A stretch of DNA of 64,000 bases from Armatimonadota bacterium (GTDB taxonomy: Bacteria; Armatimonadota; SYMT01), in assembly GCA_046292385.1 (NCBI GenBank), contig JBKBRF010000003.1, forward strand, positions 178,231-242,230, given 5' to 3'. The notes under the pieces are model-generated. The model did not search any database. It had not been told where the DNA came from and saw only the letters and a list, made by a program, of their open reading frames with translations. The first letter of the stretch is position 1, and the number at the start of each line of letters is the position of its first letter. Shown here one piece after another: positions 57-20,803 of the stretch. The translations under genes were made by a program, and so were the position numbers.

Positions 57-1058
57 TTACCGGATGCTCGCCGCTTCCTCGTCGCCGGTCTCCTCCGCGT
101 CCATCGGGCTCTCCAGGTCGGTCTGCGGGTAGGCCGACCACTGGTTCTCCCCCTTCGGAACCGACTTGGAGATCTCCTGGCTGCGCGTGGAGCTCATCTG
201 CCGGTTGAGCTGGTGGACCTCGTCCTGGCTTTTCGAGGTGCCGACGATCGGCTGATCGAGCAGGCCGCGGGTCTCCAGGCAGTGGGTGAGCGGATCGTCC
301 ACGTACTCCCACTGCTCGCCCTGGCTCCACGGGCCCTGTCCCTGGTTCCACGGGCCGCGCGCGTCGGTGCCGTTCGACATGTTGAAGTAGACGTGCGTGA
401 AGCGCGGGTCACCCTGCAGCACTCCCGGCGGGAAGTTCGGCTGGATCGTGTCGAGTGCCGCGTGGAACATCTGGAAGTGCGCGATCTCGCGCGTCATCAG
501 GAACCGCAGCGACTCCTGCACGTGCGGGTCGTCCGTGAACTGGAGCAGGTACTCGTAGACGATCTTCGCGCGCGACTCCGCCGCGATGTTGGAGCGGAGG
601 TCGACCGTCAGGTCGCCGTTCGCATTCACGTACGCGGCGGTCCACGGCACGCCCTGGCTGTCGGTCAGGGTGGGGCCGCCGCCGGAGAGCACCAGGAACT
701 GCGGGTTGGTGAGCGCCTCGTGGAGCATCTGCTCCTTCCGCTCCTTGCCCTGCATGAGCTGGACCACCGGATTCGCCTCCGCGGCGTTCTTCAGCTCGCC
801 GTTCACGCCGTCCAGCAGCATCGTGATCGTGGCGCCGACGATCTCCAGGTGACTCAGCTCCTCCGCCGCGATGTCCATCAGCAGGTCGTACTTCTCCGGG
901 TACGGCTGCCGCGCCGCGAACGCCTGCACGAAGTACTGCATCGCCGCCTTGAGCTCCCCATTTCCGCCGCCGAACTGCTCCAGCAGCAGGCGGGCGAAGC
1001 GGGGGTCCGGTGCGGAGACACGCGCGTTGAACTGCAACTCCTTGACGTGGTGGAACAT
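57..1058 (-). CDS. manganese catalase family protein
   Basis: MFHHVKELQF start, EQFGGGNGE, EELSHLE, NIAAESRAK and REIAH ferritin-like Mn ligands; GGAG SD. Confidence 0.93.
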   Translation of the reverse strand: MFHHVKELQFNARVSAPDPRFARLLLEQFGGGNGELKAAMQYFVQAFAARQPYPEKYDLLMDIAAEELSHLEIVGATITMLLDGVNGELKNAAEANPVVQLMQGKERKEQMLHEALTNPQFLVLSGGGPTLTDSQGVPWTAAYVNANGDLTVDLRSNIAAESRAKIVYEYLLQFTDDPHVQESLRFLMTREIAHFQMFHAALDTIQPNFPPGVLQGDPRFTHVYFNMSNGTDARGPWNQGQGPWSQGEQWEYVDDPLTHCLETRGLLDQPIVGTSKSQDEVHQLNRQMSSTRSQEISKSVPKGENQWSAYPQTDLESPMDAEETGDEEAASIR

Positions 1059-1155
1059 CGACTACTCCTCCGAAGGGACCGTCGGCACGGCGGCCGTGAC
1101 CCCTCGACTCTGCCCGTCAGCGGCAGCTCTGAAACGGAGCTTCGCAGTGCGGTCA

Positions 1156-1365
1156 TCACTCTCCCAGCAGGTCGAGGCAGGCCTGCTTCACCGACAGCAC
1201 GTCCGCGCCGTCGACTTCCACCTCCACGCGCCACGGGGCGGTGCCGTGGTCCGGTCCCAGCAGCCGCACGCTCGCCCCGGGATACTGATCGCGAATCGGC
1301 AAGAGCTGCTGCCGGACTCCCTCCGCGAGCTCTCGTGAGAGCGCCGGCTCGATGAAGCGCGCCAT
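1156..1365 (-). CDS. small hypothetical protein (69 aa)
   Basis: ATG at 1365 with GGAGG SD; protein-like composition; divergent from csoR. Confidence 0.55.
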   Translation of the reverse strand: MARFIEPALSRELAEGVRQQLLPIRDQYPGASVRLLGPDHGTAPWRVEVEVDGADVLSVKQACLDLLGE

Positions 1366-1440
1366 CTGGGTTCCCTCCATCCGGAGTCCATGCCGCTTAC
1401 ACCGCCTCTGCCCTCGCTGCACCGCGTCGAAACGACTCAC

Positions 1441-1457
1441 ATACCCGCCCCGGGTAT
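1441..1457 (+). promoter_or_regulatory. CsoR-type operator upstream of csoR
   Basis: ATACCCGCCCCGGGTAT, 17-nt C/G-tract pseudo-palindrome like the B. subtilis copZA operator. Confidence 0.8.
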
Positions 1458-1499
1458 CGTAAGATGGGGAGACAGGACCGATCGGACCAGGAGAGTGGA

Positions 1500-1763
1500 A
1501 TGCTGCCGGAAGTGAAGAAGGACGCCACGAACCGCATCAACCGCATCGCGGGACAGGTGGCGGGCGTCAAGAAGATGATCGACGAGGACCGCTACTGCGT
1601 CGACGTGCTGAACCAGATCTCCGCCATCCGCTCCGCGCTCGACCGCCTCGGCGTGGAACTGCTCACCGGCCACCTGGAGAGCTGCGTGATCGGCGCGGAC
1701 GACTGCAAGAAGCACGACTTGCTGGAAGAGGTGCGCGTCTCCCTCAGCCGTTTTCTGAAATAG
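1500..1763 (+). CDS. csoR: CsoR family copper-sensing repressor
   Basis: RINRIAGQV, RYCVDVLNQISA, HLESC (C-H-C ligand set); next to copZ/copA. Confidence 0.93.
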   Translation: MLPEVKKDATNRINRIAGQVAGVKKMIDEDRYCVDVLNQISAIRSALDRLGVELLTGHLESCVIGADDCKKHDLLEEVRVSLSRFLK

Positions 1764-1781
1764 CCCCATGACTAACCCCGC

Positions 1782-1836
1782 TTGTCGCTCATACCCCCAG
1801 GGGGTATAATACGCGAGGTATACCCCCCAGGGGTAT
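1782..1836 (+). promoter_or_regulatory. sigma70 promoter of cop operon with two CsoR operators
   Basis: TTGTCG(1782)-N17-TATAAT(1805); operators ATACCCCCAGGGGGTAT 1791-1807 and ATACCCCCCAGGGGTAT 1820-1836. Confidence 0.85.
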
Positions 1837-1862
1837 TCAGTCCGATGCGAGAGGGTAAGCAC

Positions 1863-2081
1863 ATGAAGGAAGCGCAGGAGATCACGTTCGGGGTAGACGG
1901 CATGGCCTGCGGCGGGTGCGCCGCGGGGCTGGAACGGAGCCTCCGCGAGCAGGAGGGGGTGCGCGAAGCGCGGGTCGACTTCGCCGGACGGCAGGCACGG
2001 ATTTGCTTCGATCCGGCCCGCGTGCAGCCGGAAGGCCTGGCGGCGGCGATCCGCGGCGCGGGCTACGACGTGCGGAGCTAG
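1863..2081 (+). CDS. copZ: CopZ-like copper chaperone (HMA domain)
   Basis: GMACGGC motif, 72 aa, ends AGYDV. Confidence 0.9.
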   Translation: MKEAQEITFGVDGMACGGCAAGLERSLREQEGVREARVDFAGRQARICFDPARVQPEGLAAAIRGAGYDVRS

Positions 2082-2090
2082 GAGGCGGCC

Positions 2091-2486
2091 ATGGATACGG
2101 CGGAAATCTTCGTCACCCTGGGGGGGCTGCTCGCGATCGCGTGGGTGGTCTGGTTCTTCTTCCTCGGGGAGCGGGAGCGGACCGTCGCCGCGGTGGGCGC
2201 CACCGGCGCGCAGGAAGTGAAGATCCTGGTGAAGGGCGGCTACGACCCGGACGTGGTGGTGGTGCGGCAGGGACGGCCGGTGCGGCTGGAGTTCTACCGG
2301 GATGAGACCGCCGGCTGCTCCGACACGGTGGTGCTGGGCGACTTCGGCATCGCCCGGCCCCTACCGCCCTACCAGTCGACGGTGGTGGAGCTCACCCCGG
2401 AGCGGGCGGGAGAGTTTACGTTCACGTGCGGCATGAACATGCTGCGCGGCAAGCTGATCGTCGAGCCGGCGGGGGAGGGAGAGTAG
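2091..2486 (+). CDS. membrane-anchored cupredoxin-domain protein (CupA-like)
   Basis: N-terminal TM helix, GGYDP, upstream Cys, [10 protein letters not shown]. Confidence 0.85.
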
Positions 2487-2488
2487 CG

Positions 2489-4993
2489 ATGCAGACGACG
2501 GAGCGACCCCGGGAGAGCGGGGGCACGGAGCGCGTGGGCGTGCCGGTGACCGGCATGACCTGCGCCGCGTGCGCCGCGCGCATCGAGAAGGTCCTGCGCC
2601 GCACCGAAGGCGTGCGCGAGGCGAACGTCAACTTCGCCGCGCACCGTGCCACGGTGGAGTACGACCCCGCCGCCACCGACACGCGGACCCTGGTGGAGCG
2701 GATCCGGAACGCCGGCTACGGCACCGCCGGCACGGCGGAGGCCCGCTTCCGCGTGAACGACAGCGAGTGCATGACCTGCACGCCGGACAAGCTGGAGAAA
2801 GCGGTCCTCCCCGTCGCCGGGGTGCTGGCAGCCACCTACAACGCCGCCACGCAGCAGGTGATCGTGGAGTACCTGCCGGAGGCCGCGGACCTCGACGTGG
2901 TCCGCCGCGCCCTCGAGTCGGCCGGCTACCGGGTGGAAGACACGCCGCCCGCGGGCGCGGTGGGAGCGCCGGAAGGCGAGGCGGACTGGGAGCAGCAGGC
3001 GCGGGAGCAGGAGTACCGGGAGATCTGGCGGCGGCTGCTGGTGGCGCTGGTGTTCGGCGTGCCGGTGACCGTGGTCGCGATGCTCCATCTCGACTTCCCG
3101 GGCAACCACTGGTTCCAGCTCCTCTTCACCACGCCGGTCGTCTTCTACTCCGGCCGGCCGTTCTTCACCGGCGCCTGGGGCGCGCTGCGGCACCGCTCCG
3201 CCGACATGAACACGCTGATCGCCCTGGGAACCGGGGCGGCGTATCTCTACAGCGTCGTCGCCACGCTCTTCCCGCAGAGCGTCACGGTCGCGGCCGGCCA
3301 CGCGGCGCACGCCGCGGCGCCGGTCTACTTCGAAGCGGCCGCGGTGATCATCGCGCTGATCCTGGTCGGGCGCCTGCTGGAGGCGCGTGCCAAGGCGCGG
3401 ACCGGCGACGCGATCCGGCGCCTGATGGGGCTGCAGGCCCGCACGGCGCGGGTGATCCGCGGCGAGCAGGAGCTGGAGGTCCCGGTCGAAGAGGTGGCGC
3501 CTGGCGACCTGGTGCTGGTGCGCCCGGGCGAGAAGATCCCGGTCGACGGCGTCATCCGGTCCGGCGAGAGCGCGGTCGACGAGTCGATGCTGACCGGCGA
3601 GAGCCTGCCGGTGGAGAAGCGCCCCGGCGACGAGGTGTTCGGCGCGACCGTGAACCGCACCGGCGCCTTCCGCTACGAGGCGACCCGAGTGGGCAAAGAC
3701 TCGGCGCTGCAGCAGATCATCAAGCTGGTGCAGGACGCGCAGGGCAGCAAGGCGCCGATCCAGCGGCTGGCGGACGTGATCAGCGGCATCTTCGTGCCGG
3801 TGGTACTCATCATCGCCATCGCCACCTTCGTGGCCTGGTTCAACTTCGCGCCGGTGGAGACGCGGCTGCAGCAGTCGCTGGTCGCCTTCGTCTCCGTCCT
3901 GATCATCGCCTGCCCCTGCGCCCTCGGCCTCGCGACCCCCACCGCCATCATGGTCGGCACCGGCAAGGGCGCGGAGAACGGCGTGCTGATCAAGGGCGGC
4001 GAGAGCCTGGAGACGGCGCACCGGCTGAGCGCCATCATCCTGGACAAGACCGGCACGATCACCCACGGACGGCCGGAGCTGACCGACGTGCTCGCCGCGG
4101 CGGGGGGAGAAGCGGCCGAGACCGAGCTGCTGCGCCTGGCGGCGGCGGCGGAGCGCTCCTCGGAGCACCCGCTCGGCGAGGCGATCGTCCGGGCCGCCGA
4201 GGCGCGGGGGCTCCCGCTGCCCGAGCCGAGCGCGTTCCAGTCGCTCACCGGCCGGGGCCTGGAGGCGACCGTCGACGGTCGTTCCCTGCTGGTCGGCAAC
4301 CGGCGGTTGATGGAGGAGCGGGGAATCGACATCTCGGCGCTCGACGACGCGATGACTCGGCTCGCCGGGGAGGGCAAGACCCCGATGCTGGCGGCAGTCG
4401 ACGGCGCCGCGGCCGGCATCCTCGCGGTGGCGGACACGGTGAAGGAGAGCTCACCCGCCGCGGTGGCGGCGCTGCGGCGGATGGGGCTGGAAGTGGCGAT
4501 GATCACCGGCGACAACCGCCGCACCGCGGAAGCGGTGGCGCGGCAGGTCGGGATCGACCGCGTCCTCGCCGAGGTCCTGCCGGAGCACAAGGCGGAGCAG
4601 GTGAAGCAGCTTCAGTCCGAAGGCAAGGTGGTGGCGATGGTCGGCGACGGCATCAACGACGCCCCCGCGCTGGCGCAGGCGGACGTCGGCATCGCGATCG
4701 GCACCGGCACCGACATCGCGATGGAGGCGTCCGACGTCACGCTGATCCGGGGCGACCTGAACGGCGTGGTGACCGCGGTCGAGCTCTCCCGCGCTACGAT
4801 GCGGACGATCAAGCAGAATCTCTTCTTCGCCTTCATCTACAACACGCTCGGGATCCCGGTCGCGGCGGGGGTCTTCTACCCGCTCTTCGGGTGGATGCTC
4901 TCCCCGATGTTCGCCAGCGCGGCGATGGCGCTCTCCAGCGTCTCCGTGGTCACCAACAGCCTCCGCCTCCGCGGCTTCCACCCGCGGAGGTAG
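2489..4993 (+). CDS. copA: Cu(I)-exporting P1B-1 ATPase
   Basis: GMTCAAC plus a second CMTC metal-binding domain, TGES, CPC, DKTGT, HP, GDGIND, YN and MALSS motifs. Confidence 0.95.
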
Positions 4994-5057
4994 GGTGGCG
5001 TCGGACGGTGTCTAAGCGCACGGCGCGCAGACGGTACCCTCCAGCGTGGGAGTCATT

Positions 5058-5195
5058 TGGAGTGCGGAAGCTTGCTTCCGCTTTGAGGAGCCTTTCGCCA
5101 CGGTAGCTTTCTGCGAGCGAAAGCAAGCTCTCGCAGCAGGCGGCGGACCGGCCTCGGAGGCTGCGGCGAAAGCGGGAGCGAGCTCCCGCACTCCA
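5058..5195. repeat. REP-like inverted repeat pair
   Basis: TGGAGTGCGGAAGCTTGCTTCCGCTTT ... AAAGCGGGAGCGAGCTCCCGCACTCCA. Confidence 0.75.
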
Positions 5196-5252
5196 GATTC
5201 CGTCCCGCTCAGCCTGGATCGCCCGACGCAGATGTGGATCCGGAGGAAAGCC

Positions 5253-5609
5253 ATGCGCATCGGCTCCATCGTCATCTACTGCCGCGACTTCCCGACGATG
5301 CGCCGCTTCTGGCGGGAGGCGCTCCGCTACGTGCCGCGGGAGGAGCCGGAGGACGGGTGGGTCGTGCTCTGCGACCCGCGCGGACCGAACGTCAACGTCT
5401 CGCTTAACCGGGCGAGCGAGCCCCGCGCCGAGCGGGGGCGGCTGCACCCCGACCTCTACACGCCGGACGCCGCGACGGAGGTGGAGCGGCTGCTCGCGCT
5501 GGGAGCCACCCTCCACCCGCGGCGGGCGGAGCCGGACGAGGACTTCACCGTGCTGGCCGACCCGGAAGGAAACCTCTTCTGCGTGGTGGAGAAGCGCGCC
5601 CGCGCCTGA
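5253..5609 (+). CDS. VOC/glyoxalase family protein
   Basis: RIGSIVI..RFWREAL..LHPDL..VLADPEGNLFCVV; GGAGG SD. Confidence 0.88.
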   Translation: MRIGSIVIYCRDFPTMRRFWREALRYVPREEPEDGWVVLCDPRGPNVNVSLNRASEPRAERGRLHPDLYTPDAATEVERLLALGATLHPRRAEPDEDFTVLADPEGNLFCVVEKRARA

Positions 5610-5707
5610 TCTTTCGTTTGCCGACCGGGAGCCGGAGGGCAGGAGTCTCTGGAGGCCCCGCCTCCCCCGCCCGATCGGCGGGCGGGGACCCACGAGTGAG
5701 GAAGAGG

Positions 5708-6070
5708 ATGCCCCACGTAAGCCCCGAGATGCGCGAGTGTATCGACGCCTGCACCTCCTGCCACCAGACCTGCGTCGAGACGGTGACCCACTGCCTGCAG
5801 ATGGGCGGCAAGCACGCGGAAGCGGACCATATCCGGCTGATGCTCGACTGCGCCGAGATCTGCGAGACGAGCGCCAACTTCATGCTGCGCGGCTCGGACC
5901 TGCACCAGGAGACCTGCCGCACCTGCGCCGTCGTTTGCGAGCGCTGCGCCGAAGACTGCGAGCGCTTCGACGAGGACTTCATGCAGCGGTGCGCCGAGGA
6001 GTGCCGCAACTGTGCGGAGCACTGCCGCCGCATGGCGGGCTCCCAGCGCACGATGGCACGCGCCGCCTAG
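5708..6070 (+). CDS. four-helix-bundle copper storage protein (Csp3/DUF326-like)
   Basis: 16 Cys in CxxC/CxxxC helical spacing, no signal peptide. Confidence 0.88.
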   Translation: MPHVSPEMRECIDACTSCHQTCVETVTHCLQMGGKHAEADHIRLMLDCAEICETSANFMLRGSDLHQETCRTCAVVCERCAEDCERFDEDFMQRCAEECRNCAEHCRRMAGSQRTMARAA

Positions 6071-6211
6071 CACACCCTCTGGGGAGCCGGCCGGGTGCCG
6101 GCTCCCCCCCGCGCCTCTCCCACCTGCAGCTTCTCCGTGAGTTTGCGTCCCCCAGGCGGCCGGGTACGCACCGTTGAGAGGGACCGAACGGCAACTGCGG
6201 GAGAGGGCGAG

Positions 6212-6784
6212 ATGATCGAGAAGATGCGGAGGGCACTGGCAGCCGCCGGGGTGCTGGCGGCGACTCTGGCCGTCCCGGCGCTGGGCTGGGGACCGGACGC
6301 GGAGGCGGCGGCTTCGACCCAGCAGGGGATTCAGGGTCCCGTCCCTGCTCCGGAGAGCACGGGAAGCGCCGCCGGGCAGGTAGACGCGCGGGACCCCGCG
6401 CAGCCCGTCCAGGCACCGGCGGATCCGGCCGGGGCCGCGGCAGAGCGCGCCGATCCCGGCGGCATTCCGGGAGGTGACATGGTGGGCGGGGTGCTGGTGC
6501 CGGAGACCGGCGGCGACGCGATTGGCTCGCAGAGCGTGAGGGAGCCGCTTCCCAGAGGGGCAGAAACGCTCTCGCGGGAGGGGGCGAGCACCTCGCCGCA
6601 GCAGGCGCAGGACGATGTCTACGGCCGGCACGATCCGGAGTATCTGGAGCCTGGTAAGCGCGGCGAGTGGGACACCAACTTCGCGTGGCTCGCCCTTCTC
6701 CTGATCCCGTTCCTGGTGGGCGGTGCGGCCGTCTGGTGGATGCGCCAGCGAGGCACCCCGCGGGAGCGGCATCCCGCGCCCTAG
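6212..6784 (+). CDS. exported low-complexity protein with C-terminal membrane anchor
   Basis: signal peptide, Pro/Ala/Gly/Gln-rich body, TM segment followed by MRQR basic tail. Confidence 0.7.
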   Translation: MIEKMRRALAAAGVLAATLAVPALGWGPDAEAAASTQQGIQGPVPAPESTGSAAGQVDARDPAQPVQAPADPAGAAAERADPGGIPGGDMVGGVLVPETGGDAIGSQSVREPLPRGAETLSREGASTSPQQAQDDVYGRHDPEYLEPGKRGEWDTNFAWLALLLIPFLVGGAAVWWMRQRGTPRERHPAP

Positions 6785-6799
6785 CCCGGCGCGATGCGC

Positions 6800-6833
6800 G
6801 CGGCCGGCGGCTGGGACGGAAGGCCGCCGGCCG
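6800..6833. terminator. GC-rich hairpin between convergent genes
   Basis: CGGCCGGCGGC / GCCGCCGGCCG 11-bp stem; no U tract. Confidence 0.45.
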
Positions 6834-6850
6834 GTCGCCTTTCGCGCCGC

Positions 6851-7445
6851 CTACCTGCCGCTCGGCGGCGCGGAGATACTGCTCGTACGGCACCGCGCCG
6901 GTGATCACCTCGTCGCGGATGAAGACGGTCGGGATGCCCTGCACCCCCTGCTCCAGCGCCTCGCGGTACTCGGACCAGACTTCCTCGAGCCCGTCGCCCG
7001 CCTCCAGCGCAGCGGTCAGCGCCGACGCGTCGATGCCGGCACGGGCGGCGAGCTCCGCCAGCACGGCCGCGTCGCTGACGTCGCGCGTCTCCTGGAAGAA
7101 GGCCTCGAAGAGGGAGAGGTCGAACGCGTCGAAGCGGTCCGGCGCGTGGCGCTTCACCCACGCCGCCGCCTGCAGCGCCGGCAGCGACGAGGACGGGTAG
7201 CGGCTCCCCACCTCCGGCAGGTCGAACGGCAGCCCGGTCAGCTCCCGCGCCGCCCGGCGGTGGCGGAGGTGGTATTCCGTGAACCGGTGCTCTCCCGGCT
7301 CGCCGCGCAGCACGAAGGCGCGGTGGACCAGGCGGACCGGCACCCCCAGCTCCTGCTGCAGCTTCCGCAGGCGCACGGCCGCGGGCCAGCACCAGGGTCA
7401 GAGGTAGTCCGAGACGACCGTAATCTCCAGCGGCTCTCCGGGCAT
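6851..7445 (-). CDS. DsbA/FrnE family thioredoxin-fold protein, putative selenoprotein (UPWC)
   Basis: ATG 7445 with AGGAG SD; MPGEPLEITVVSDYL-TGA-PWCW; GVQGIPTV cis-Pro loop and GAVPYE. Domain ends near 6855, but the first in-frame stop is at 5979; TAG at 6853-6851 is 1 nt out of frame, so the 3' end is uncertain. Confidence 0.82.
7365..7384 (-). promoter_or_regulatory. candidate bacterial SECIS element (DsbA gene)
   Basis: CCGC-GGC-CGUGC-GCC-U-GCGG hairpin; loop at +21..+25 after UGA with GU at +22/+23. Confidence 0.55.
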
Positions 7446-7515: not shown

Positions 7516-8730
7516 TCAGTGCGCCAGCACGAAGGCGCCGTCCGGACGCGCATAGGCCGCGGGAACGCCCCAGACCGGCACCCCGTCGGGAAGCCTTCCG
7601 AGCTCGCCGATCGGCTTTCCGGAGCGGTCGAACCGCTGCCAGGCGAGGTGTCCGCCGCGGCGCCACGCGGTCCCTTCCGTCCAGGCGAGCAGCACCTCCC
7701 CGTCCGGGTTGACCGCCAGCGCGGGGTGCTTCCGGCTCCCGGCCTCTCCCGGCGCCGCGACCGCCGGACCGATCCGGCCGGTGCGGGGATCCACCCGGCC
7801 GAAGTAGACCTGCCCCGCCGTCTCCCACGCCGCCAGCACGCCGTTCGGGCCCTCGACCAGGGCCCAGCTGCTCATCGGTCAGGTGTCGATCTTCCACCGG
7901 TCTCCCTGGGCCCCCCGGAAGCTCTTGCCGGCGTCTCCGGACGACAGCAGGTACGTGTCTCGGTTCACCTTGCCGTCCGCGGTGCGGTAGAGCACGTAGA
8001 CGCCGCCGCTGCTGTCGGCAAACACCTTCGTCAGGCAGCAGGGGCAGGCGCCGGTCGGCTCCGTCTCCACCGCGCGCTCCGCGGCGAAAGTGCGGCCGTC
8101 GTCCGCCGATTGGGCCATCCAGACCCGCCGCTTCTCCTCTCCCGGACCCGGTTTACCCGGCGCGACGGCGCCCTCCGCGCCGTGCCAGGCGACATAGACG
8201 CCGCCCCGTCGGTCGGCCGCGATACCCGGGCCGCCGTCGAGCAGCGAGCTGGCGTGCATCAGGGGCCGCTGCGGCTCGAACGTGGTCCCGGCCTCGCTCA
8301 GCCGGGAGTAGAGCACCGGCGCGCCGCCGAGCGGGTTCGCCTCCGCGCGGCTGGAGCCGAACCAGACCACGTGCGGGCGCCCACCCTTCCCCAGCGCAAG
8401 CTGGCCGCCGCGGATGGTGCCGGCCGCGACCGCGCTGCCGGGGACGCTGTTCACTCGCAGTGGCGCTGCCCACTCACCGCCCGCGGCGGGACGGCGGGTG
8501 TAGAACAGGTCGCCGCTGGCGTCCTGCCCCTGGTAGTAGAGCAGGTGGACCTGGCCGGATGCGTCGACCGCCACCTGCGGCTGGATGCCGCCGTCCGGGG
8601 GGCGCACCAGCTCGACCGGGGCCGCCGCGGCCGCCCGCGCCGGCTCCACGCTCCGGCATCCACCGCCGACCAGCACGCCGCACGCGGCGGAGCCGATCCC
8701 GAGCACCACCGATCGACGCGTCCGTTTCAT
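7516..8730 (-). CDS. BNR/sialidase-like beta-propeller Tat lipoprotein, putative selenoprotein (404 aa, U284)
   Basis: RR signal and GGGC lipobox; Asp-boxes SADDGRTF and SGDAGKSF; CPCC; WKIDT-TGA-PMSS read-through joins track ORFs ending 7879 and starting 7875 in the same frame. Confidence 0.8.
7846..7866 (-). promoter_or_regulatory. candidate bacterial SECIS element (BNR gene)
   Basis: UGGGCCCU-GGUCG-AGGGCCCG 8-bp stem starting at +13 after UGA; loop +21..+25 with GU at +22/+23. Confidence 0.72.
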
Positions 8731-10705: not shown

Positions 10706-10966
10706 ATGGCGGAACCGATTGAATTGACCGAGCAAGAGCGGGAGCAATTCGAGAGAAAGATCGCGCGTCTGCGCGCCACTCCCGAGGAACGCGCGAAGAT
10801 CCTCGCGGGAGGCGAGCCGTTCGACCTCGATGCGTGGCTTCGAGAAGTCGGACCGGCCAGGCCTGACGAGTTGGAAGAGATGGAGGAGCTCTTGCGGGAG
10901 CGCGCTGAGGAGCGCCGCCGTGGTCTGACTGCGGAGGACGAGCAGCTCGCCGGCCGGACCCGATGA
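10706..10966 (+). CDS. putative antitoxin
   Basis: small acidic protein overlapping the downstream PIN gene (ATGA). Confidence 0.7.
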   Translation: MAEPIELTEQEREQFERKIARLRATPEERAKILAGGEPFDLDAWLREVGPARPDELEEMEELLRERAEERRRGLTAEDEQLAGRTR

Positions 10967-11412
10967 GCCCTCGTCCGGAGAGCCCTGCCGCGTCCACCTC
11001 TGTGGTGGTGGATACCGACGTAGCTTCCTTTCTCTTCAACCGTTACCCGGTGCGGACCCCGCGTTACGCTCCTCATCTTCAGGGACGCACGCTGATCTTT
11101 CCCTTTGCGGTGGTAGGCGAGATGCTGTTCGGCGCCGAGCACCGAAACTGGGGCGCCGCGCGGCGGCTGGAGCTGGAGCGCTTCATCCGGCGCGGTAAGA
11201 TCGAGTACCCGAACTATCCGCTCTGCGAGATCGGGGCAGAGATCCGGGTCATCGCTCGCAAACGCGGGTGGGCAATCGAGCGTCAGGACGCGTGGGTGGC
11301 GGCGACTGCCATCTACCTGGACCTGCCACTGGTGACCCACAATGCTCCGGACTACGCAGGGGTGCCGACTCTGCAAGTCATCACGGAACCGGATCGCCAG
11401 GCGGAAAGGTGA
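10963..11412 (+). CDS. PIN domain (VapC-like) toxin
   Basis: VVVDTDVAS, GEM, QDAWVAATA, LVTHN acidic PIN motifs. Confidence 0.9.
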   Translation: MSPRPESPAASTSVVVDTDVASFLFNRYPVRTPRYAPHLQGRTLIFPFAVVGEMLFGAEHRNWGAARRLELERFIRRGKIEYPNYPLCEIGAEIRVIARKRGWAIERQDAWVAATAIYLDLPLVTHNAPDYAGVPTLQVITEPDRQAER

Positions 11413-17441: not shown

Positions 17442-18218
17442 GTGAAAACGTTCCGCATCCTGGCGCCGCTGGCCTTACTGCTTCTGGCCGGCCCCGCCCA
17501 CGCCGTGGACCACAACAACATCGACGCGCACCGGCCGCTGTCGTTCGACGACGCCGACGCGCTCGCTTTCCGGGAGCAGGCGCTGGAATTCGGGCTCGGC
17601 CTCGGCTGGCCCCGGCGGCGCCCGCTCGGGCTGGGACTGGAGGCCGAGTATCTCTACGGCTTCCGCATGAACAGCCACCTGAGCGTCGGCTTCGAGCCCT
17701 CCGTCGGGGGCCGGGCCGGCAGCGAGAGCCCCGCCTTCGACTTCGGCGACGTGTCGCTGGGCCTGTTCCACAACTTCAACCGGGAACACGGGAACACCCC
17801 GGCGTTCTCCCTCCGGGGCGACGTCTTCTTCCCGACCGGCCGCGACTCCCGGGGAGTGGCGGGCCGCCTGCGCGGGATCATGAGCAAGCAGGCCGGCCAG
17901 TACGGGCGGCTGCACGTGAACGTCGATTTGAACGCCCACCCGGACGCCCCGCGCGGGGAGCGGCAGTTCACCCCGGGACTCGTGCTCGGCTACACCCGCC
18001 CGCTCGGCTACCCGACGAAGTTCGACACCACCGGGCTGGCGGAGCTCTCCGTCCGTGCCGGCGATGAGCGCGGCAGCGGCGCGCTGGTCGGCATCGGCCT
18101 CGGCATCCGCAAACAGGTCGGGGTGCGCTCCGTGATGGACCTGGGCGTCCAATCCGACCTGACCGGCGCCTCGCGGGACCGCTTCCGCGTGGTGGCCGGC
18201 TACTCTTACGGCTTCTGA
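17442..18218 (+). CDS. putative outer-membrane beta-barrel protein
   Basis: GTG with AGGAG SD, AHA signal cleavage, amphipathic strands, C-terminal YSYGF. Confidence 0.72.
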   Translation: MKTFRILAPLALLLLAGPAHAVDHNNIDAHRPLSFDDADALAFREQALEFGLGLGWPRRRPLGLGLEAEYLYGFRMNSHLSVGFEPSVGGRAGSESPAFDFGDVSLGLFHNFNREHGNTPAFSLRGDVFFPTGRDSRGVAGRLRGIMSKQAGQYGRLHVNVDLNAHPDAPRGERQFTPGLVLGYTRPLGYPTKFDTTGLAELSVRAGDERGSGALVGIGLGIRKQVGVRSVMDLGVQSDLTGASRDRFRVVAGYSYGF

Positions 18219-18237
18219 CACTCGAGAGGAGCTCACG

Positions 18238-19032
18238 ATGAAACAGATAATCGCCCTCGCCGGGATCAGCCTGTTCCTGGCCACCGGCTCCGCCGCGGCA
18301 CCGGGCGCAAAGCCGGCGCCCAAGAAGCCGGCAAAGCCCGCCGTGCCGACCGCGGCCGCCAAGATGGCCTTCACCGACGCGGCCTCCACCTGGGGAGACA
18401 TCCAGGTCCAGGTGAAGGACCTGGCACAACTGATCCAGGAGAAGCGCCTGGACGAGGTGCACCCCGTCGCGTTCGAGATCCGGGACCTGGTCCGCACCCT
18501 GCCGGACAAGAGCAAGTCGCTCCCGGCCGCCGGCATGAAGAAGCTGGAAGCGCAGGTCCGGGTGATGGACCGTCTCGCGGAGCAGCTCGACCGATACGCG
18601 GACGCGGGGAAGCAGCCGGAGACGGCGCGCCAGCAGCAGGCGGTGCTCCGCGCCCTCGGCACCATCAAAGCGCTCTACCCGGCGGGTGTGCTGACCAGCC
18701 AGCCCCCCGCGGCGCCCGCGGCTTCGAAGGACCGGCAGCTCTACCTGACCCCGGGCGGCGCCTATACCGAAGCGGACATTAAGGCGAACGGCAGCCAGCT
18801 GCCGTCCCAGAAGTTCCGCGGCGTGCGGGTGAACCACGATCTGAAGCCGGCGGTGGGAGACCGCATCTGCCCGATCACCCTCACCAAGGCGAACCCCGGC
18901 TATAGCTGGGTGATTGGCGGGAAGGAGTACCTCTTCTGCTGCCCGCCGTGCCTGGAAGAGTTCCTCACGCTCGCCAAGAAGGACCCCGCGGCGATCAAGC
19001 CGCCGGAGACCTACGTCAAGCAGGCGCCGTAG
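18238..19032 (+). CDS. exported protein with helical domain and C-terminal YHS/TRASH-like domain
   Basis: signal peptide; CPIT..YLFCCPPC..F..DP. Confidence 0.8.
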   Translation: MKQIIALAGISLFLATGSAAAPGAKPAPKKPAKPAVPTAAAKMAFTDAASTWGDIQVQVKDLAQLIQEKRLDEVHPVAFEIRDLVRTLPDKSKSLPAAGMKKLEAQVRVMDRLAEQLDRYADAGKQPETARQQQAVLRALGTIKALYPAGVLTSQPPAAPAASKDRQLYLTPGGAYTEADIKANGSQLPSQKFRGVRVNHDLKPAVGDRICPITLTKANPGYSWVIGGKEYLFCCPPCLEEFLTLAKKDPAAIKPPETYVKQAP

Positions 19033-19492: not shown

Positions 19493-19676
19493 TTCGACAC
19501 AGAGGGACACAGAAGAACCGACAGAGGAACACAGATTGAACACCAGAGTGGTGCCGGGGGCGACTACTCCACCATGACGGTTCGCCCGGTCTGAGTCTAG
19601 AGTTCCGGAGATCTCTGTTCGCGGCGAAGCCGCTCTGTGCGTGTCTGTTGGTTCGTCTGTGTCCCTCTGTGTCGAA
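19493..19676. repeat. MITE-like element with ACACAGAG-type inverted arms
   Basis: TTCGACACAGAGGGACACAGA... / ...TCTGTGTCCCTCTGTGTCGAA. Confidence 0.8.
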
Positions 19677-19771
19677 AAACCGGAACCCGAAACCCACGCG
19701 GCGGCGCGTCGTCTGAATGGGCAAACCACTCTCGTCTACCCTCTCTGCCTTCGGGCCCCGGAGGAGTCGCC

Positions 19772-20803
19772 ATGTCTGAGATGAAGAAGCCCGCCGCGTG
19801 CCCGGACTGCGAGCTCTCGCGGCGCCAGTTCCTGAAGACGGCCGGCGTCGCCGCGGTCGCCGCGGCCGCCGCGCCCGTGTTCGCCACCGCGCGGGTGGGC
19901 GCCGCACCGGCCGCGGGCAGCCAGGACACGCTGGTGTCGCAGCTCTACGGCACGCTGAACAACGCGCAGAAGTCGGCGGTCTGCTTCGGCTGGGACCATC
20001 CCCGCCGCCAGATGATCGCCAACAACTGGATGATCGTGCCCCAGACGATCGGCAAGTTCTACACGCCGGACCAGCAGGAGCTGATCACCGCGATCTTCAA
20101 GAGCGCCCACTCGGAAGAATGGGTGAGCCAGCGGCTGAAGCAGATGACCGACGACTCCGGCCCGGAAGGCCTCAAGGCGTACAGCATCGCCATGTTCGGC
20201 ACCCCCGGCTCCGGCAAGTTCGAGTGGGTGCTCACCGGTCGCCACCTGACGCTGCGCGTCGACGGCGACAGCGAGCCGGGCGTCGCCTTCGGCGGGCCGA
20301 TCTTCTACGGCCACGCCGCCCAGGGCTTCGATGAGAAAGCGGATCATCCGGGCAACGTCTACTGGTACCAGGCCCTGCGCGCCAACGAGGTCTTCAAGGC
20401 GCTCGACGGCAAGCAGCGGGAGAAGGCGCTGCAGACCGGCGACATCCCGGGCGAGAGCCCGCAGGTGCTCGTCTCCCGCGCGGCGGAGCAGCGCGCCGGC
20501 CTGCCGGTGGCCCAGATGACCCGCGACCAGCGCGAGCTGGTGGAGAAGGTGCTCGCCGACCTCCTCGCCCCGATGAGCCCGAAGGACCAGTCGGAGGCCC
20601 GCCGCTACCTGCAGGCGAACGGCGGCGTGGAGAGCCTCCACATGGCGTTCTACAAGCAGGGCGACATCGGCAACGACGGCGTCTGGGACGTCTGGCGCCT
20701 GGAAGGTCCGGCGATGAGCTGGTACTTCCGCGGCGAGCCGCACGTCCACACCTGGGCGTGGCTCGGCGAGAAGCCGCTCGCCACCGCCCCTCCCGGACCG
20801 TAA
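19772..20803 (+). CDS. DUF3500 domain protein (Tat)
   Basis: SRRQFLK, FGTPGSGKFEWVLTGRHLT, WRLEGP..FRGEPHVH. Confidence 0.85.
   Translation: MSEMKKPAACPDCELSRRQFLKTAGVAAVAAAAAPVFATARVGAAPAAGSQDTLVSQLYGTLNNAQKSAVCFGWDHPRRQMIANNWMIVPQTIGKFYTPDQQELITAIFKSAHSEEWVSQRLKQMTDDSGPEGLKAYSIAMFGTPGSGKFEWVLTGRHLTLRVDGDSEPGVAFGGPIFYGHAAQGFDEKADHPGNVYWYQALRANEVFKALDGKQREKALQTGDIPGESPQVLVSRAAEQRAGLPVAQMTRDQRELVEKVLADLLAPMSPKDQSEARRYLQANGGVESLHMAFYKQGDIGNDGVWDVWRLEGPAMSWYFRGEPHVHTWAWLGEKPLATAPPGP

Follow-up and report, generated by a model that had tools for sequence, protein, structure and literature searches.

Does the in-frame TGA of a propeller gene from an Armatimonadota bacterium encode selenocysteine (Sec), and if so, what would Sec do in an exported protein of this kind? 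The gene lies in a 64,000-nucleotide stretch of contig JBKBRF010000003.1 (the window, by which we mean this whole stretch), and a preliminary description of the window had placed it at 7516..8730 and proposed a selenoprotein that is exported and does not have a thioredoxin fold. The coordinates were correct; the plus-strand reading of the interval gives a nonsense translation and was rejected, and the gene is on the minus strand. There, each of the motifs listed earlier is seen, namely two Asp-boxes, CPCC, W-K-I-D-T-(TGA)-P-M-S-S and about 120 further codons, with U284 lying 52 residues after CPCC in the window protein. The proposal itself is borne out by the pairing of the TGA with an invariant Cys, by 11 further TGA forms, by hairpins in 12 of 12 TGA forms, by the Sec machinery and by a propeller model. 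We are highly confident that the TGA at codon 284 is decoded as Sec. That this decoding goes together with a copper-related role of the protein seems to us reasonably probable.

The protein search returned 1599 matches, of which the best full-length ones were 380-405 amino acids (aa) long, with 90-100% query coverage and 51-59% identity. We aligned 27 homologues from the best 120 of these matches with the window protein (28 sequences). All 27 full-length homologues have Cys at column 284, within C-P-M-S-S, and thus the Cys in W-x-[IL]-x-x-C-P that had earlier been suggested for relatives is indeed present. C229, C231, C232, C/U284, P285 and M286 are invariant in the alignment. The features of the gene, all on the minus strand, are as follows.

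8730 to 7516, minus strand: whole gene, 404 codons and the final TGA (translation, GC content at third codon positions (GC3), full-length Cys homologues, AlphaFold2 model)
8656..8730, minus strand: N-terminal export signal, codons 1-25, a hydrophobic stretch with Cys17 and Cys25 as possible lipidation sites
8086..8109, minus strand: Asp-box 1, S208-A-D-D-G-R-T-F215 (from the sequence), with S208, G212 and F215 invariant in 28 of 28 aligned sequences
8035..8046, minus strand: CxCC motif C229-P-C231-C232, family consensus C-G-C-C, with the three Cys invariant in 28 of 28
7918..7941, minus strand: Asp-box 2, S264-G-D-A-G-K-S-F271 (from the sequence), with S264, G268 and F271 invariant
7881..7879, minus strand: in-frame TGA, codon 284, very probably read as Sec, aligned with the invariant Cys of homologues
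7873..7878, minus strand: P285-M286, the Met being invariant in the alignment and a candidate thioether ligand
7846..7866, minus strand: hairpin resembling a selenocysteine insertion sequence (SECIS), 8-bp stem, apical loop GGUCG, 20 nucleotides (nt) past the UGA, -16.2 kcal/mol
7516..7518, minus strand: true stop codon TGA; homologues terminate at the equivalent column, ...[IFL]-x-[HY]

The pairing of TGA with Cys codons, which had been suggested as a check, was also found at the nucleotide level. Among 146 distinct gene sequences, codon 284 is TGC in 96 and TGT in 38 (134 Cys forms), TGA in 12, and TAA or TAG in none; this pool consists of kin sequences from all gathered loci, collected with a looser motif pattern. 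The 12 TGA forms are those of the window, of the same-family genomes G004 and G005, of the contig L029 and of eight metagenome loci, and they include both Armatimonadota-type and Planctomycetota-type sequences. Seven of the eight genomes of the window's class have the gene, with TGA in three (its own genome, G004 and G005) and Cys in four. G004 and G005 have one TGA, at the equivalent codon, in the context V-D-S-U-P-M-S-S-E-A-L-V-E-G-P-N-G. The form in L029 was found among 80 named genome contigs, on a contig labelled Fimbriiglobus sp. (Planctomycetota). A further 80 metagenome contigs were retrieved with the C-terminal piece: 57 fit the motif pattern (TGC 33, TGT 16, TGA 8), and of the 23 outside it, 12 have Cys, in the form C-[V/M/T/I]-M, and 11 had no match to the second pattern. 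In a quick tree, the three Armatimonadota-type Sec forms are unresolved among two Cys forms, and L029 is not included in this tree.

The residue after Cys284 in the 134 Cys forms is Pro in 121, Val in 10, Met in two and Thr in one. The existence of the C-[V/M/T/I]-M subfamily (L104, L106, L107, L117, L123, L124, L127, L129, L142, L146, L157 and L160) indicates that this Pro is dispensable, while Cys and Met are retained. As a separate observation, eleven contigs (L032, L060, L061, L072, L078, L079, L083, L086, L090, L093 and L094) are labelled Heliomicrobium, Akkermansia muciniphila, Bifidobacteriaceae or Alcaligenaceae, and their members fall within Acidobacteriota, Verrucomicrobiota or Planctomycetota clades of the quick tree. 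Because of these positions, the labels of these metagenome-assembled genomes (MAGs) look unreliable.

The GC content of the window is 66-74%, and the gene's own frame is also open over 900 codons upstream. Because the window is so GC-rich, the open frame by itself is little evidence. GC3 in the frame of the gene, however, is 0.84-0.96 on both sides of the TGA and 0.84-0.94 after it, and the 119 residues C-terminal to the TGA match relatives with E-values down to 8e-44. The earlier proposal would have been refuted by homologues ending at the TGA, with the C-terminal 119 residues forming a separate gene; instead, the homologues continue through the site as a single gene.

We then asked whether the RNA downstream of the TGA could direct Sec insertion. 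The two strands of the window hairpin stem are UGGGCCCU and AGGGCCCG, and this core hairpin lies inside a longer fold (7830-7878). According to the available part of a recent review (PMC13188914), the bacterial SECIS (bSECIS) model has an apical loop of 3-9 nt and an upper stem of 4-16 bp, a G within the first two loop positions that is usually followed by G or U, a distance of 16-37 nt from the UGA to the loop, and a minimum free energy no higher than -7.5 kcal/mol. All 12 TGA forms fall within the four bSECIS criteria as given there. The other 11 have stems of 6-8 bp, loops of GUC, GUU, GUG or CGUGC, distances of 20-21 nt and energies of -10.6 to -13.6 kcal/mol. A hairpin of at least 6 bp occurs at that position in 12 of 12 Sec forms versus 40 of 134 Cys forms, and the 48 nt past codon 284 fold with -17.0 to -25.9 kcal/mol in the Sec forms, compared with a mean of -13.9 kcal/mol (standard deviation 4.3) in the Cys forms. 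The residues encoded by the stem are A-L-V-[E/Q]-G; x-A-L-V is found in all 12 Sec forms, and the Cys forms mostly have x-x-F-A. The protein sequence thus appears to be adapted to the needs of the RNA hairpin.

Several observations weigh against giving the hairpin too much importance. Covariation amounted to one compensatory pair and two G-U changes, which is not significant, as 167 of 500 shuffles equalled the observed score; the sole compensatory change is C-G to G-C, in L029, and 97.6% of the alignment cells are paired. The stem doubles as the coding sequence for conserved residues. The contrast in folding energy is confounded by GC content (0.73 in Sec forms versus 0.64 in Cys forms), and the hairpin also occurs in 12 of 27 high-GC Cys forms, among sequences that are related to one another. 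The hairpin is therefore consistent with Sec insertion and suitably placed, without proof from covariation. Separately, L035, a Gemmatales-labelled contig, carries at about 2590-2640 a Cys form (TGT) that has the hairpin position and shape of the Sec forms, with E-F-L-I-E-G-P; this hairpin could be the leftover of an earlier Sec form or an intermediate towards one.

The genome of the window has the machinery for Sec decoding. Its tRNA-Sec scores 66.6 bits, where the gathering score is 47, and is also called tRNA-SeC by ARAGORN, selA scores 578 bits, and selD scores 362 bits and has an in-frame TGA of its own. The genes for tRNA-Sec, selD and selA are contiguous on contig C11 (G000:C11:87438-90122), where a tRNA-Ala adjoins the tRNA-Sec, and a SelB winged-helix domain (64.3 bits) was found in a 710-aa frame on C16. 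The genomes of G004, G005 and L029 have tRNA-Sec with 67-72 bits, above the cut-off. tRNA-Sec is also present in four relatives that have a Cys form or lack the gene, and therefore Sec here is a choice within Sec-competent lineages.

A second gene with an in-frame TGA lies directly next to the propeller gene.

6870..7445, minus strand: DsbA-like oxidoreductase gene (PF01323), beginning 70 nt downstream of the propeller gene

Its TGA is codon 16 (7400..7398), at the first position of a U-P-W-C active site, and the N-terminus reads M-P-G-E-P-L-E-I-T-V-V-S-D-Y-L-(TGA)-P-W-C. Reading through this TGA raises the Pfam DSBA match to 100 bits, over profile positions 2-188, where it was 80 bits over positions 11-188 without the read-through, and 'DsbA-like protein form 1, UxxC' is among the selenoprotein families listed in the available part of the review (PMC13188914). 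This neighbour speaks for Sec being actively decoded at this locus. No signal peptide is present in the DsbA-like protein. As a conserved partner of the propeller it was rejected, since among 12 loci with 1.5-kb flanks tblastn matched it only at the locus of the window. Its frame runs on the minus strand over 5982-7397 and meets no stop until 5982; GC3 departs from the frame near 6800, where a plus-strand open reading frame (ORF; 6095-6784) that has no family match takes over. This 3' end might be explained by a frameshift or an error of assembly, or by convergent genes that overlap.

How, then, have such genes been recorded so far? The N-terminal pieces P0003, P0307 and P0342 in the databases end exactly ahead of the TGA, and 41 of 85 database matches to the C-terminal piece begin at M286, one of them recorded by NCBI, for an Armatimonadota MAG, as a 'hypothetical protein'. 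The ATG of M286 has served gene callers as the start of a spurious 119-aa C-terminal 'gene'. Public annotation thus systematically divides Sec-form genes into two 'hypothetical proteins'. Such fragments alone are no proof of Sec forms, because the C-V-M Cys subfamily shares the same downstream sequence, and our count of Sec forms includes only the 12 seen as DNA. The preliminary description had found no place for the protein among the classical selenoprotein families that its author knew. In agreement with this, it is absent from the 119 prokaryotic selenoprotein families in Table 1 of the review (PMC13188914, May 2026), and no NCBIfam model matched it; the words BNR, sialidase and propeller each have zero occurrences in that review. 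Nor do the main texts of the papers on BSepDB and SelCysML contain them, and full-text literature searches found no earlier description of this selenoprotein. Within the visible literature, it is therefore likely to be an uncatalogued selenoprotein family. Its Sec-insertion mechanism is ordinary, and what is new is the family, the fold and the setting.

Next, we examined the fold and the family. The AlphaFold2 model, built from the 28-sequence alignment, is a confident all-beta propeller, with a mean predicted local distance difference test (pLDDT) score of 88.6 and a predicted template modelling (pTM) score of 0.87. Its structural matches by Foldseek and VIA-align are generic propellers, i.e. 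CylK (Z 27.3), the BP39L/PLL lectins (Z about 25.5) and many WD40 proteins, and sialidases rank among the lectins and WD40 propellers, with TM scores of about 0.5 and root-mean-square deviations (rmsd) of 5-11 Å. A sequence search for solved relatives found none, giving only insignificant matches to designed 'Pizza' propellers. In Pfam, BNR_2 (PF13088) reaches 15.8 bits, below its gathering cut-off of 31.4, and BNR_4 (PF15892) reaches 30 bits against a cut-off of 27.3, for residues 50-88 only (profile positions 227-265 of 272). The NCBIfam scan gave no model over its cut-off, the sole match being NF053835 with 11.4 bits versus 90. The earlier label 'sialidase-like' therefore holds for the Asp-boxes and the propeller fold and does not hold beyond these. 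The same applies to the name 'sialidase family protein' carried by some NCBI records of the family, which is based on Asp-boxes alone. The family is large: with clustering at 50% identity, an exhaustive search gave 486 clusters at E ≤ 1e-30, and 1741 when the limit was relaxed to E ≤ 1e-10. Twelve longer homologues were searched for informative domain fusions, and this idea was rejected: they carry BNR_2, M20_dimer, DUF2911 or nothing, and are probably merged gene calls. P0054 (696 aa), which is called as a sigma-70/propeller fusion, is likewise probably a merged gene call.

The N-terminus of the window protein reads M-K-R-T-R-R-S-V-V-L-G-I-G-S-A-A-C-G-V-L-V-G-G-G-C, in a region with pLDDT below 55, and was described earlier as that of a lipoprotein exported by the twin-arginine translocation (Tat) pathway. 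Twin arginines and Cys residues are present as described. However, the Tat part is doubtful: the Tat profile (TAT_signal, TIGR01409) gave no match at E up to 1 in the Pfam and NCBIfam scans of the window protein, and the twin arginine is not conserved, being absent from the Sec forms G005 and P0307, although G004 has R-R-H-F-L-L-G. The candidate lipoboxes V-G-G-G-C25 and S-A-A-C17 are non-canonical compared with L-x-[AGS]-C. The N-termini of homologues are variable and hydrophobic, with L-V-A-C, L-L-V-G-C and L-L-A-S-C among the relatives, and a lipoprotein is likelier than a Tat substrate because many members of the subgroup have a Cys following the hydrophobic stretch.

If the residue at position 284 is part of a functional centre, which residues would accompany it? 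Comparison of the alignment columns with the AlphaFold2 strands showed that each conserved motif lies where a loop leads into a blade's innermost strand, with CxCC in the loop immediately N-terminal to inner strand 235-238. In the AlphaFold2 model, they are placed as follows.

G-G-I-Q-P-Q (Q50/Q52): strand 49-55
G-T-I-R-G-G (R107): before strand 110-113
L-D-G-G (D165): before strand 169-172
T-G-A-C-x-C-C (C229-x-C231-C232): before strand 235-238
C/U-P-M (C/U284-x-M286): before strand 290-294
R-K-H-P (H335): strand 333-340

Because such loops surround the mouth of the central tunnel of a propeller, the invariant residues should ring one tunnel mouth. Judging from the blade topology, CxCC and U-P-M, which are in neighbouring blades, should face one another and form one centre.

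To see what this centre might serve, we analyzed the gene neighbourhoods of 81 loci (80 genome contigs and the window), with flanks of up to 8 kb per side. ORFs of at least 90 aa were clustered, and the recurrent clusters were named with Pfam and NCBIfam, as follows.

21 of 81 loci: P-type ATPase with YHS and HMBD domains
15 of 81 loci: histidine kinase
12 of 81 loci: outer-membrane efflux protein (OEP)
12 of 81 loci: sigma-54 response regulator
12 of 81 loci: S-adenosylmethionine (SAM) methyltransferase
10 of 81 loci: TlpA/ResA-like redoxin
9 of 81 loci: CusA/CzcA-type resistance-nodulation-division (RND) pump
8 of 81 loci: multicopper oxidase with HMBD
7 of 81 loci: MerR-type regulator

At least one of five metal-efflux genes (ATPase, OEP, RND, multicopper oxidase, MerR) was found at 30 of the 81 loci. 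On the same strand and within 400 nt, the ATPase is upstream in 10 loci and downstream in three, the multicopper oxidase is upstream in five, MerR is downstream in four and RND is adjacent in three, and several of the neighbour pairs have 4-nt stop/start overlaps. On the copper subfamily model TIGR01511, ATPases from these loci score 485, 620 and 644 bits versus a cut-off of 397. In the window, the following metal and oxidative-stress genes occupy 60-6070.

60-1061, minus strand: Mn catalase
1356-1760, plus strand: csoR/RicR-like repressor (Pfam; stop-to-stop frame)
1776-2078, plus strand: HMA/CopZ-like chaperone (Pfam; stop-to-stop frame)
2306-4990, plus strand: copper P-type ATPase CopA (Pfam; TIGR01511 643.6 bits versus a cut-off of 397; stop-to-stop frame)
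5016-5606, plus strand: Glyoxalase_6 protein (Pfam)
5618-6070, plus strand: small Cys-rich DUF326 protein (Pfam DUF326, 28.6 bits)

The propeller gene is convergent with the run that extends from the csoR-like gene to the DUF326 gene, and the end of CopA is 2.5 kb away. The DUF326 protein is weakly similar to the Csp1 copper-storage family (TIGR04401, 30 bits, below the cut-off of 100).

Some other genes were noted in passing. An extracytoplasmic function (ECF) sigma factor gene lies at 5946-6551 of L029, directly upstream of the Planctomycetota-type Sec form. PIN-domain genes near the propeller gene, at 10909-11409 of the window (plus strand) and 7892-8524 of L029, are probably a coincidence. 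Farther along the window, 18163-19029 encodes a protein with weak YHS/TRASH metal-binding matches, and 19601-20800 a DUF3500 protein with a Tat signal.

From these results, we propose the following model. The product would be one exported, probably lipid-anchored beta-propeller of the seven-blade type with 404 residues, whose codon 284 would be decoded by SelB and tRNA-Sec, directed by the in-gene hairpin 20 nt downstream. Its hub centre would most probably bind periplasmic Cu(I), with thiolate/selenolate and Met as the ligands and perhaps in a small multinuclear cluster like that of CopG, and would buffer or oxidise the copper exported by CopA, or transfer it to a multicopper oxidase or a Cus-type pump. 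In this model, the Sec/Cys pairing, the SECIS-type hairpin, the Sec machinery, the propeller fold and the gene neighbourhood come from the observations, and we infer that the motifs converge in space, that the ligand is copper and that the protein acts in resistance. Given the gene context and the analogy of the motifs, a copper-related function is the explanation towards which we lean; a CopG-like multinuclear cluster, which we suggest by analogy, is tentative. A soft-metal site of the Cu(I) type had already been suggested in the preliminary description, and it gains independent backing from the copper-efflux operon context, which was not used there; the binding itself is putative.

There are also points that weigh against a copper role. 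No metal gene was found in the retrieved flanks of 51 of the 81 loci; short contigs are common in the set, and the loci are mutually related. Copper genes were also absent from the neighbourhoods of two other Sec forms, in which a histidine kinase and a sigma-54 regulator (L022) or an ECF sigma factor and a PIN-domain gene (L029) were seen. Among the invariant residues of the protein are many Arg, Glu, Asp and His, which would be superfluous for a simple metal-binding site. In addition, a role with another chalcophile element or in redox chemistry is possible because the methyltransferase (12 loci) and the redoxin (10 loci) recur.

This last point leads to the explanation that the protein is a genuine selenoprotein with a redox-active thiol/selenol site, e.g. 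a selenenylsulfide between U284 and CxCC, and not a set of metal ligands. In the periplasm, such a site could catalyse redox reactions of Cu(II)/Cu(I), Hg, Se, Te or As, or the turnover of thiol-disulfides or peroxides. Sec is the redox nucleophile in most known selenoproteins, according to the available part of PMC13188914, and at the window a DsbA-like UxxC selenoprotein adjoins the gene. The redoxins and methyltransferases at 10 and 12 of the 81 loci point the same way, and so do the many invariant charged residues, which are enzyme-like. CopG itself has been proposed to oxidise Cu(I) (PMC7558416, available part), so that this explanation overlaps with the copper-site model. However, no CxxC or UxxC motif spans the Sec, whose potential partners are about 52 residues distant, the DsbA-like neighbour occurs at the window locus only (12 loci, 1.5-kb flanks) and has no signal peptide, and the strongest recurrent neighbours are copper exporters and not redox enzymes. 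We regard this explanation as possible but rather unlikely. Alternatively, the four Cys/Sec residues might ligate an Fe-S cluster that is inserted in the cytoplasm, followed by Tat export of the folded protein. The arrangement CxCC...C of four invariant Cys and the twin arginines of the window protein (T-R-R-S-V-V-L) and G004 (R-R-H-F-L-L-G) would suit such a route. Yet a match to the Tat profile is absent, and the signals of most homologues, those of the Sec forms G005 and P0307 among them, are plain hydrophobic ones that lack RR; they imply export in an unfolded state, which does not go together with an Fe-S cluster inserted beforehand. The invariant Met beside the fourth Cys and the copper-operon context also indicate Cu, and we consider an Fe-S protein very unlikely.

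Could the TGA simply be a real stop, either in a decaying gene or between a 283-aa protein and a 119-aa protein that starts at M286? The databases do keep the two pieces separately, as P0003 (283 aa) and P0124 (119 aa), and the ordinary stop codon of the gene is likewise TGA. However, 12 distinct sequences, which belong to two phylum-level groups, have the identical split, always with TGA, and both sides of it are conserved, 134 relatives are unsplit, and there are both a hairpin and Sec machinery; moreover, judging from the model, a propeller without its last two to three blades could not close. A real stop is thus highly improbable. To our knowledge, structural cysteines are not replaced by Sec, which also counts against the idea that the protein is a sialidase or another glycoside hydrolase of the BNR/GH33 type, with Cys in a purely structural part. 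This idea would account for the two Asp-boxes, the weak BNR_2 and BNR_4 matches, the sialidases among the Foldseek matches and the NCBI name. However, BNR_2 is under its cut-off and BNR_4 is confined to residues 50-88, the structural match to sialidases has a TM of about 0.5 and an rmsd of 5-11 Å, and the neighbours are metal exporters and not sugar-utilisation genes, so that a glycosidase can be given almost no credence.

Returning to the proposed copper-binding selenoprotein, what would it mean? It would add to the catalogues a selenoprotein family with a fold, the beta-propeller, and a setting, that of exported proteins in copper-efflux operons, that they do not yet contain. The large family named 'sialidase' probably fills a gap in the copper homeostasis of abundant, little-studied soil phyla. 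A bolder version, which we consider speculative and rather doubtful, is that the hub of the propeller holds a Cys/Sec-bridged multinuclear copper cluster, and that the family is an unrecognised, widespread class of periplasmic copper-detoxifying proteins. If true, the class would span soil Acidobacteriota, Planctomycetota, Verrucomicrobiota and Armatimonadota, and its Sec forms would be the first natural copper-selenolate proteins, evolved for tuning the site's affinity or redox behaviour. The natural exchange of Sec and Cys at residue 284 singles this residue out as the functional hot spot, and the hypothesis is therefore directly testable with the Cys forms.

Finally, we compared the protein with known systems. 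It shares the Asp-boxes and the propeller fold with the BNR/Asp-box propellers (GH33, BNR_2/BNR_4), but differs from them in its non-carbohydrate gene context and in having an invariant Cys/Met centre in place of a sialidase-type site. The seven-blade propeller NosZ (2iwf) is also among the structural matches (Z 20.1). The CuZ site of NosZ is a multinuclear copper centre at the hub of a propeller, and it uses His ligands, not Cys/Met. Because its score is no better than those of WD40 proteins, the match concerns the generic fold only. We know of no copper-selenolate site described in a natural protein. In formate dehydrogenase (Mo/W-Se) and [NiFeSe] hydrogenase, Sec replaces Cys as a direct ligand of a redox metal, and they are also a precedent for exported selenoproteins (PMC13188914, available part), but their folds, metals and cofactors are unrelated to those considered here. 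With known bacterial selenoproteins in general, the window protein shares the Sec/Cys pair, the TGA orthologues, the hairpin 16-37 nt downstream with a G in the loop, and selABCD. Metal-related families listed in the accessible part of the review include the CopZ-family 2Fe-2S, the SO_0444 Cu/Zn efflux transporter, the YHS-domain and the E1-E2 ATPase families, whereas none in its table is described there as a beta-propeller (PMC13188914).

The remaining comparison is with CopG (DUF411), a periplasmic protein genetically linked to copA, cusCBA and cueO, which holds a Cys-bridged cluster of four Cu atoms by means of CxCC and two Met and is proposed to oxidise Cu(I) or to pass it to a recipient, according to the available part of its description (PMC7558416). 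Like CopG as described there, the window protein is exported, has an invariant CxCC and Met, and belongs to a family with gene linkage to copA, cus and multicopper oxidase genes. However, CopG is a small thioredoxin-like domain and the window protein a propeller of about 370 residues, in which a Pfam scan gave no DUF411 match, and its fourth ligand candidate (Cys/Sec284) and Met286 would, according to the model, come from another blade. The table of families in the available part of the review has no Sec form of CopG (PMC13188914). Thus, CopG is the closest functional analogue, and the window protein may at most work like it, without being a member of its family.

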